The position numbers and the translations under genes are program-made. A stretch of 32,000 nt of DNA from contig JBHLRO010000011.1 in assembly GCA_048882505.1 (NCBI GenBank), positions 1-32,000 of the forward strand, read 5' to 3'. The notes under the pieces were generated by a model, which searched no databases, had not been told where the DNA came from, and worked only from the letters and a program-made list of their open reading frames with translations. Shown piece by piece: positions 7,730 to 7,798 of this stretch (positions within the stretch are counted from its first letter, which is position 1; the number at the start of each line of letters is the position of its first letter). Origin of the DNA: Candidatus Thorarchaeota archaeon (lineage in GTDB: Archaea > Asgardarchaeota > Heimdallarchaeia > Hodarchaeales > Hodarchaeaceae).

Positions 7730-7798
7730 AACGAGTCTGTGATGAAACCTGACAAGTGAAAGCTTTGCGATGATCGATTATAGTTACTCTGAGACGTT
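7730..7798 (+). ncRNA. Box C/D sRNA (2'-O-methylation guide)
   Basis: C box GTGATGA 7739-7745, D' GTGA 7756-7759, C' GCGATGA 7767-7773, D CTGA 7789-7792, terminal stem GTC/GAC extended by AAC/GTT. Both guides are complementary to conserved LSU rRNA sequences. Confidence 0.85.

Follow-up and report, generated by a model that had tools for sequence, protein, structure and literature searches.

Does the gap between two neighbouring open reading frames of an archaeal contig hold the gene of a guide RNA, and which nucleotides of the 23S rRNA would such an RNA address? The window, i.e. the whole stretch of 32,000 nucleotides that was analysed, corresponds to contig C11 of a 4.3-Mb metagenome-assembled genome (MAG) of 83 contigs, here called G000. 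An initial annotation made from the sequence alone had read a box C/D sRNA at 7730-7798, with one guide directed at the loop of helix 69 (H69) and the other at a site upstream of the P-loop. The assignment as a box C/D sRNA was borne out by the boxes, the terminal stem, the fit of the guides to the organism's own 23S rRNA and conservation: positions 7730-7802 of the forward strand very likely encode an archaeal dual-guide box C/D sRNA, for which transcription, RNP assembly and two methylations are predicted. The sRNA is conserved and previously unannotated, and belongs to a class that is already known. The positions of its parts are collected in Table 1.

Table 1. Parts of the predicted sRNA in window coordinates
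Feature	Position	Strand	Remark
Dual-guide box C/D sRNA, predicted	7730-7802	+	About 73 nt; intergenic between ORF 7275-7706 and ORF 7892-9010
Terminal stem, 5′ strand AACGAGUC	7730-7737	+	Pairs with 7793-7795 and 7798-7802
Unpaired U	Between 5′ stem and box C	+	Sequence reading
Box C GUGAUGA	7739-7745	+	TGATGA invariant in 22 genomes
D′ guide AACCUGACAAG	7746-7756	+	7747-7755 pair with 23S UUGUCAGGU
Spacer AACCUGACAA between box C and GUGA	7746-7755	+	10 nt
D′ box usable in the window copy, GUGA	7756-7759	+	Read from sequence
GAAA at the genus-typical place of AUGA	7758-7761	+	Alignment A1, columns 39-42
Variable D′-C′ loop AAGCUUUGCG	7760-7769	+	Mean column identity 0.74
Box C′ AUGAUCG	7770-7776	+	AUGA core (columns 51-54) invariant
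D guide AUUAUAGUUACU	7777-7788	+	12-nt spacer; 7778-7788 UUAUAGUUACU are the 11 pairing positions
Box D CUGA	7789-7792	+	Invariant across the genus
Terminal stem, 3′ strand GAC-gu-UCGUU	7793-7802	+	Runs into the T5 tract
T5 run	7801-7805	+	Likely archaeal termination signal; function inferred

The motifs named in the initial annotation, GTGATGA (7739-7745), GTGA (7756-7759), GCGATGA (7767-7773), CTGA (7789-7792) and the D guide TTATAGTTACT (7778-7788), were all found in place, so that both terminal boxes expected of archaeal C/D sRNAs, RUGAUGA on the 5′ side and CUGA on the 3′ side, are present. Some of its readings stood only in part. GCGATGA exists as a motif, but the functional core of box C′ is rather ATGA(TCG) at 7770-7776 when the 21 relatives are considered, and with this placement the D spacer becomes exactly 12 nt long. 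GTGA exists as well, but its use as box D′ is specific to this lineage, 20 of the 22 genus copies having ATGA or TTGA 2 nt downstream. The terminal stem was confirmed, with an architecture of 3 bp, a GU bulge and 5 bp, but the RNA reaches beyond 7798, since the pairing of 7730-7737 with 7793-7802 puts its 3′ end near 7802, inside the T5 run; T-rich tracts also follow the stem in most relatives. Against the spacers of about 12 nt on both sides that accompany a k-loop, the D side measures 12 nt and the D′ side of the window copy, with GUGA, 10 nt. Complementarity to rRNA of at least 9-10 bp, spanning the fifth nucleotide upstream of box D or D′, was found for both guides, with 11 bp and 9 bp, respectively.

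The Asgard origin assumed in the initial annotation holds, because the THUMP protein encoded downstream of the sRNA has its closest named record (84% amino-acid identity) in the MAG Candidatus Heimdallarchaeota archaeon TM2S.58. The proteins of the box C/D machinery are encoded in the bin as well, with nop5 and fibrillarin adjacent to each other at C18:64409-65939 and L7Ae at C2:71064-71318. Two distinct 23S rRNA genes were present in the bin, a complete one on contig C57 (C57:307-3242) and the 5′ two-thirds of another on contig C38 (C38:1-2076), which ends with the contig. The C38 type agrees fully (100% identity) with the 23S rRNA of G016, the closest relative, and to 91% with that of the genus member G004, while C57 and the C38 type share merely 65-76% identity. 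C38 was taken as the rRNA of the organism itself and C57 as a probable contamination of the bin.

When both guides were checked against C38, perfect matches of 11 bp and 9 bp were obtained, and the target complements AGTAACTATAA and TTGTCAGGT both occur there with starts 34 nt apart, in a region that reads GGGAGUAACUAUAACUCUCUUAAGGUAGCCAUAUGCCUUGUCAGGUAAGUUCUGAC. The D guide forms 11 bp with the H69 loop AGUAACUAUAA, equivalent to A1909-A1919 of E. coli, the presence of which in the host 23S rRNA the initial annotation had presupposed. U7784, the fifth nucleotide upstream of box D, faces the equivalent of E. coli A1913, so that the assignment of this nucleotide by the N+5 rule was confirmed by pairing to the organism's own rRNA, with the methylation itself as a prediction. 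Position 12 of the D guide is variable (identity 0.55); it would face C1920 and be unable to pair. The E. coli numbering was checked on the supplementary alignment of Dennis et al. 2015 (PMC4644070) and cross-checked by the yeast equivalences psi2258 = psi1915 and psi2260 = psi1917 (PMC2794176).

The target of the D′ guide had to be reassigned. Positions 7747-7755 form 9 bp with UUGUCAGGU on C38, equivalent to E. coli 1943-1951 in the 5′ strand of helix 71 (H71), some 30 nt beyond the H69 loop. As this is the single rRNA occurrence of UUGUCAGGU in the genome, with none in the complete C57 23S rRNA, the placement upstream of the P-loop at the C2232 equivalent was wrong.

Homologues were detected by BLAST in all of the 21 other genomes of the genus, and the alignment of the resulting 22 sequences including the window (alignment A1) is gap-free. 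Box C TGATGA, the D′ guide ACCTGACAAG, the ATGA of box C′ and TTATAGTTACT together with the CTGA of box D are invariant in the 22 genomes, which agrees with the conservation of boxes expected from the initial annotation. Variation is found at position 12 of the D guide, position 1 of the D′ guide, the D′-C′ loop, the 3 bases past the C′ core, the stem and the flanks, and segment identity amounts to 1.00 for the guides versus 0.49-0.77 elsewhere. The proteins encoded on either side are 37-66% identical to those of the window, G016 excepted. At the level of sequence, conservation of this kind points to selection on a guide RNA and not to a spacer or a coding region.

The terminal stem was assessed by per-sequence duplexes with a non-cognate control. 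Every one of the 22 genus copies has a stem of its own of 5-10 bp, and cognate 5′ and 3′ flanks fold with -12.4 kcal/mol versus -6.9 kcal/mol for non-cognate pairs from diverged copies. A count in fixed register on the ungapped alignment gave 56.8% paired positions, a value that is uninformative because the stems differ in register.

Within the genus, the copies differ in the position of box D′. In 20 of the 22 copies a spacer of the canonical 12 nt, AACCTGACAAGN, is followed by ATGA or TTGA, which leads to G1945 as the predicted target. Columns 39-42 of the alignment hold ATGA in 18 copies, TTGA in two and GAAA in the window and G016, which are 98% identical to each other; with GUGA as box D′ and the 10-nt spacer, the N+5 position of these two is C1947. 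Their box C′ reads AUGAUC(G/U) and that of the sister group AUGAUAG, the A-to-C change at position 6 of C′ being unique to the window and G016, and this change allows C7775 to pair with the G that has been gained in GUGA. The total length of the RNA is kept despite the shift. Box D′ of the window and G016 has thus probably slid 2 nt upstream with a k-loop still formed, and the D′ target of the window copy is probably C1947, both as judged from the aligned sequences.

Following the established box C/D mechanism, the sRNA would assemble with L7Ae, Nop5 and fibrillarin, the terminal stem closing a k-turn made up of boxes C and D, and a k-loop arising from boxes C′ and D′, and the assembled RNP would base-pair with nascent 23S rRNA. 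The D guide on the helix 69 loop would then direct 2′-O-methylation of the A1913 equivalent, and the D′ guide, at the beginning of helix 71 some 30 nt further on, that of the G1945 equivalent in most of the genus. In the window lineage, where box D′ lies 2 nt upstream, the D′ side would address C1947, or it may still reach G1945, function more weakly or be inactive.

It is also possible, though in our estimate the less probable course, that in the window lineage only the D guide methylates (at A1913) and that the D′ side is dead and kept as a pairing chaperone between H69 and H71 during 23S rRNA folding. The replacement of the genus-typical AUGA by GAAA at the 12-nt position, restricted to the window and G016, speaks for such a loss, as does the fact that the other 20 copies, like the distant Asgard homologue G123 described below, keep the two RNP halves about 12 nt apart. 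The sequence of the D′ guide is still intact, which would suit a chaperone, but the window and G016 are too similar for the decay of an unused guide to show. On the other hand, GUGA 2 nt upstream can complete a k-loop with the C′ box AUGAUC, the change at C′ position 6 that is unique to these two copies supplies the G-C pair for it, the total length is maintained, and guides of 10-12 nt are reported from archaea (PMC7994747).

Beyond the genus, homologues were recovered from several families, and hairpin inserts in the D′-C′ loop were found in families f4 and f15. In the copies of this RNA from G031 and G035 (family f4), the loop contains an inserted hairpin and the D′ spacer measures 11 nt, and for these two f4 copies the predicted D′ target is U1946. 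The guides of G031, TCATAGTTACT (D) and AATCTGACAAG (D′), fit the 23S rRNA of this genome at AGUAACUAUGA and CUUGUCAGAU, so that both guides have changed along with the rRNA; the search for compensatory changes proposed in the initial annotation was thereby successful. In G037, also of family f4, the D guide is compensated, the D′ duplex contains an uncompensated C.A mismatch, and box D is CCGA. The homologue in G022, a genome of the same order (C363:2051-2133), has a box C ending in AUGAUUG (GAUGAUUG) and AUGA as box D; in its k-turn the usual G6-C1 pair is replaced by U-A, with U at position 6 of box C and A at position 1 of box D. Strict RUGAUGA/CUGA patterns would miss this homologue. In G123, which belongs to an Asgard family outside this class, AAUGACGA, GUUCUGGCAAGG, UCGA, a hairpin, AUGAAAU, AUUAUAGUUACU and CUGA follow one another in this order, with spacers of 12 and 12 nt, a terminal stem, and N+5 positions on A1913 and G1945. 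The D′-guide variants AACCAGACAAGA, TATCCGACAAG and GTTCTGGCAAGG occur in G022, G035 and G123, respectively, in all three of which the rRNA is unassembled.

Covariance model R1 recovered all genus copies together with G022 and G037, the rest being weak (E>0.03); among the 8 matches listed, six besides these two genomes were rejected for absence of matching guides. The class-wide pattern CATRGTTACTCTGA found G031, G035 and one chance match and nothing more, and weak BLAST matches in G025, G027 and G045 were discarded as chance matches. With a broad pattern applied to the phylum, matches outside the known families were about as frequent as in the reversed control, G123 excepted.

The gene order around the sRNA, as obtained with Pfam, is aIF2-gamma, a PIN protein, tRNA-Thr(UGU), the L28e-like gene, the sRNA, the THUMP/ThiI-like gene and, on the opposite strand, AMMECR1. 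The sRNA starts 24 nt past the stop codon of the L28e-like gene, lies between the L28e-like and THUMP genes in each of the 21 relatives, and shares the strand of both neighbours in all of them. This arrangement, together with the lack of a clear TATA box upstream in a reading of the sequence by eye, might suggest a cis element of the neighbouring mRNAs in place of a stand-alone RNA gene; it would belong either to the L28e-like gene, as its 3′ UTR or terminator, or to the THUMP gene, as its 5′ leader. We consider this very improbable: a UTR needs no two invariant stretches of 10-11 nt that are complementary to adjacent 23S rRNA sites, nor would it need all four boxes (C, D′, C′, D), spaced by 12 nt, to frame them, and the homologues of families f2, f4 and f15 sit in other gene contexts with no L28e-like or THUMP match alongside. 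Processing of C/D sRNAs from longer transcripts, moreover, fits a guide RNA gene equally.

L28e is a eukaryote-type ribosomal protein family. The L28e-like protein adjoining the sRNA throughout the 21 relatives is encoded at 7275-7706 (+), comprises 143 aa and matched Pfam Ribosomal_L28e with 29.3 bits, under the cut-off of 33.2. The tRNA-Thr(UGU) gene is located 40 nt upstream of it. The window contains tRNA genes at 7159-7231 (+) and 64-140 (-).

In order to gauge how often such matches arise by chance, the genome was scanned for RTGATGA..CTGA, which gave 207 candidates; in only 2 of these does the D guide match 10 nt or more of rRNA. In the reversed genome, 3 of 46 candidates had a D-guide match to rRNA; a lone 10-nt guide match is thus not significant and counts for little. 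The assignment is carried by the match of the second guide to a neighbouring site, by the terminal stem, by conservation and by the compensatory changes. The other match of the scan is a second likely C/D sRNA at G000:C15:73588-73672 (+), with AUGAUGA..CCGA..UGAAGA..AAGUUGCACUUG-CUGA, the D guide of which has a 10-nt match to the C38 23S rRNA at about position 875 of the fragment.

At the gathering threshold, Rfam returned two tRNAs only for the window. With cmscan of 7600-7950 at E<=10, the best matches were to snoRNA families with 13.9-21.4 bits, far below the gathering scores, and were driven by the guide and box D. The fold of the single strand was no better than that of shuffled sequences (z = 0.5), and an insignificant single-strand fold is usual for C/D sRNAs. 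A chance constellation, to which the shortness of the box motifs, the occurrence of single 10-nt rRNA matches in the control and the lack of a significant fold or Rfam match might lend some colour, is effectively refuted by nucleotide-level conservation in 22 of 22 genus genomes with flanks about 50% identical, by co-varying stems, by two guides on adjacent rRNA sites and by the guide compensation in G031.

The sites addressed lie in a region already known as a target in other archaea and in eukaryotes. Helices 68, 69 and 71 are methylation hotspots of archaea, and predicted sites crowd around A1912 (Dennis et al. 2015, BMC Genomics 16:632, PMC4644070). The H69/H71 region is a hotspot in Crenarchaeota and Euryarchaeota. 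The guide of sR113 of Sulfolobus acidocaldarius, ..CAGAGTTACT-CTGA, is directed at alignment position A2179, the E. coli A1913 equivalent (PMC4644070). Like the window sRNA, sR113 is an archaeal C/D sRNA of about 60 nt with its D guide to the A1913 equivalent in the same register. It differs in its host, a thermophile of the Crenarchaeota, and in its D′ guide, which is without predicted target, whereas both guides are targeted here; outside the guide and the boxes the two RNAs are unrelated, so that common descent is not shown. In the supplement (PMC4644070), the sRNAs S125, S20, P40/T40, I109, I91 and K69, several of them crenarchaeal, appear in the H69 block as well as in that of 1940-1960, which means that dual guides linking H69 with H70/H71 already exist. 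It is typical of archaea that both guides of one sRNA address rRNA sites close to each other (PMC7994747).

In eukaryotes, the A1913 equivalent is Am2256 in yeast, guided by snR63, and A3739 in human, guided by SNORD46 (PMC2794176; PMC6461891). The same rRNA nucleotide of the H69 loop is the target of snR63, SNORD46, Giardia GlsR7 and the nucleomorph RNA GtNM-R8 of G. theta, the last of which uses the guide at box D for it, as here (PMC6461891); GlsR7 and GtNM-R8 have the guide in common. The initial annotation was right that yeast and human methylate this site, but the site is not special to eukaryotes, being an archaeal hotspot with a guide in sR113. Its further proposal that the RNA is possibly ancestral to the snR63/SNORD46 function gains nothing from the similarity of the guides, which is no sign of descent, as the guide is dictated by a near-universal target. 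No match to the SNORD46 and snR63 models was found in 7600-7950 (cmscan, E<=10). The GlsR7 match in the same search reached 13.9 bits versus a gathering score of 75 and comprised guide and box D only; this match and that of plant snoR442, both weak, cover exactly UAGUUACUCUGA.

The second site has eukaryotic counterparts too. G1945 is equivalent to yeast Gm2288 (snR75) and to human Gm3771 (D′ guide of SNORD15A), and it lies 32 nt past A1913, just as Gm2288 lies 32 nt past Am2256. In the ribose-methylation list of yeast 25S rRNA, Gm2288 is followed by Cm2337, with none at the C1947 equivalent that is predicted for the window copy. Where Nm sites and guides of eukaryotes were checked, separate snoRNAs serve A1913 and the H71 site, whereas here one RNA would serve both, and the window sRNA is set apart from the eukaryotic guides by its archaeal traits, namely compact size, 12-nt spacers and a k-loop.

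A literature search retrieved no paper describing Asgard C/D sRNAs, and the terms Asgard and snoRNA yielded general mentions only. Few non-coding RNAs are known from Asgard archaea. The locus adds a well-supported, previously unannotated guide RNA to their number and indicates that a lineage of the Heimdall group aims predicted RNA-guided methylation at the H69/H71 region of the subunit interface. In most of the genus, both predicted sites are those methylated in yeast and human, and the predictions fit an rRNA modification pattern that is continuous between archaea and eukaryotes, with descent not proven. Two linked readings that go further are put forward as rather doubtful. The eukaryotic guides for A1913 and G1945 might derive from an Asgard dual guide that was split; if so, the ancestral Asgard RNA held both guides for which eukaryotes now use snR63/SNORD46 and snR75 or the D′ guide of SNORD15A. 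The sliding of box D′, in turn, might have moved the methyl group from G1945 to C1947; if so, it would be a natural case of methylation-site drift by box sliding, with the guide fixed, a matching change in C′ and the length unchanged. The practical value lies in annotation and in a test case of 12-nt versus 10-nt D′ spacers, in which the position of the box would set the methylated nucleotide.

Two further observations concern the rRNA genes around the target sites. The 23S locus halts at the same point in G000 (start of contig C38, where the contig terminates) and in G016 (end of contig C9), after GCAUGAACGGAU at about E. coli 1972, and the 23S rRNA of G004 continues past that point. The shared stop suggests an insertion or repeat, perhaps an intron, by which the middle of the 23S rRNA was left unassembled. 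Separately, the 3′ strand of helix 69 of the 23S rRNA is split by an insert of about 880 nt, which has ..ACUCU on one side and CUUAAGG on the other (near E. coli 1923/1924) and lies only 4 nt from the H69 pairing site of the sRNA. It is carried by G031:C99 (locus 1625-2504), G037:C98 and G048:C293, and its ends, which are alike across three genomes of two families, suggest an rRNA intron.
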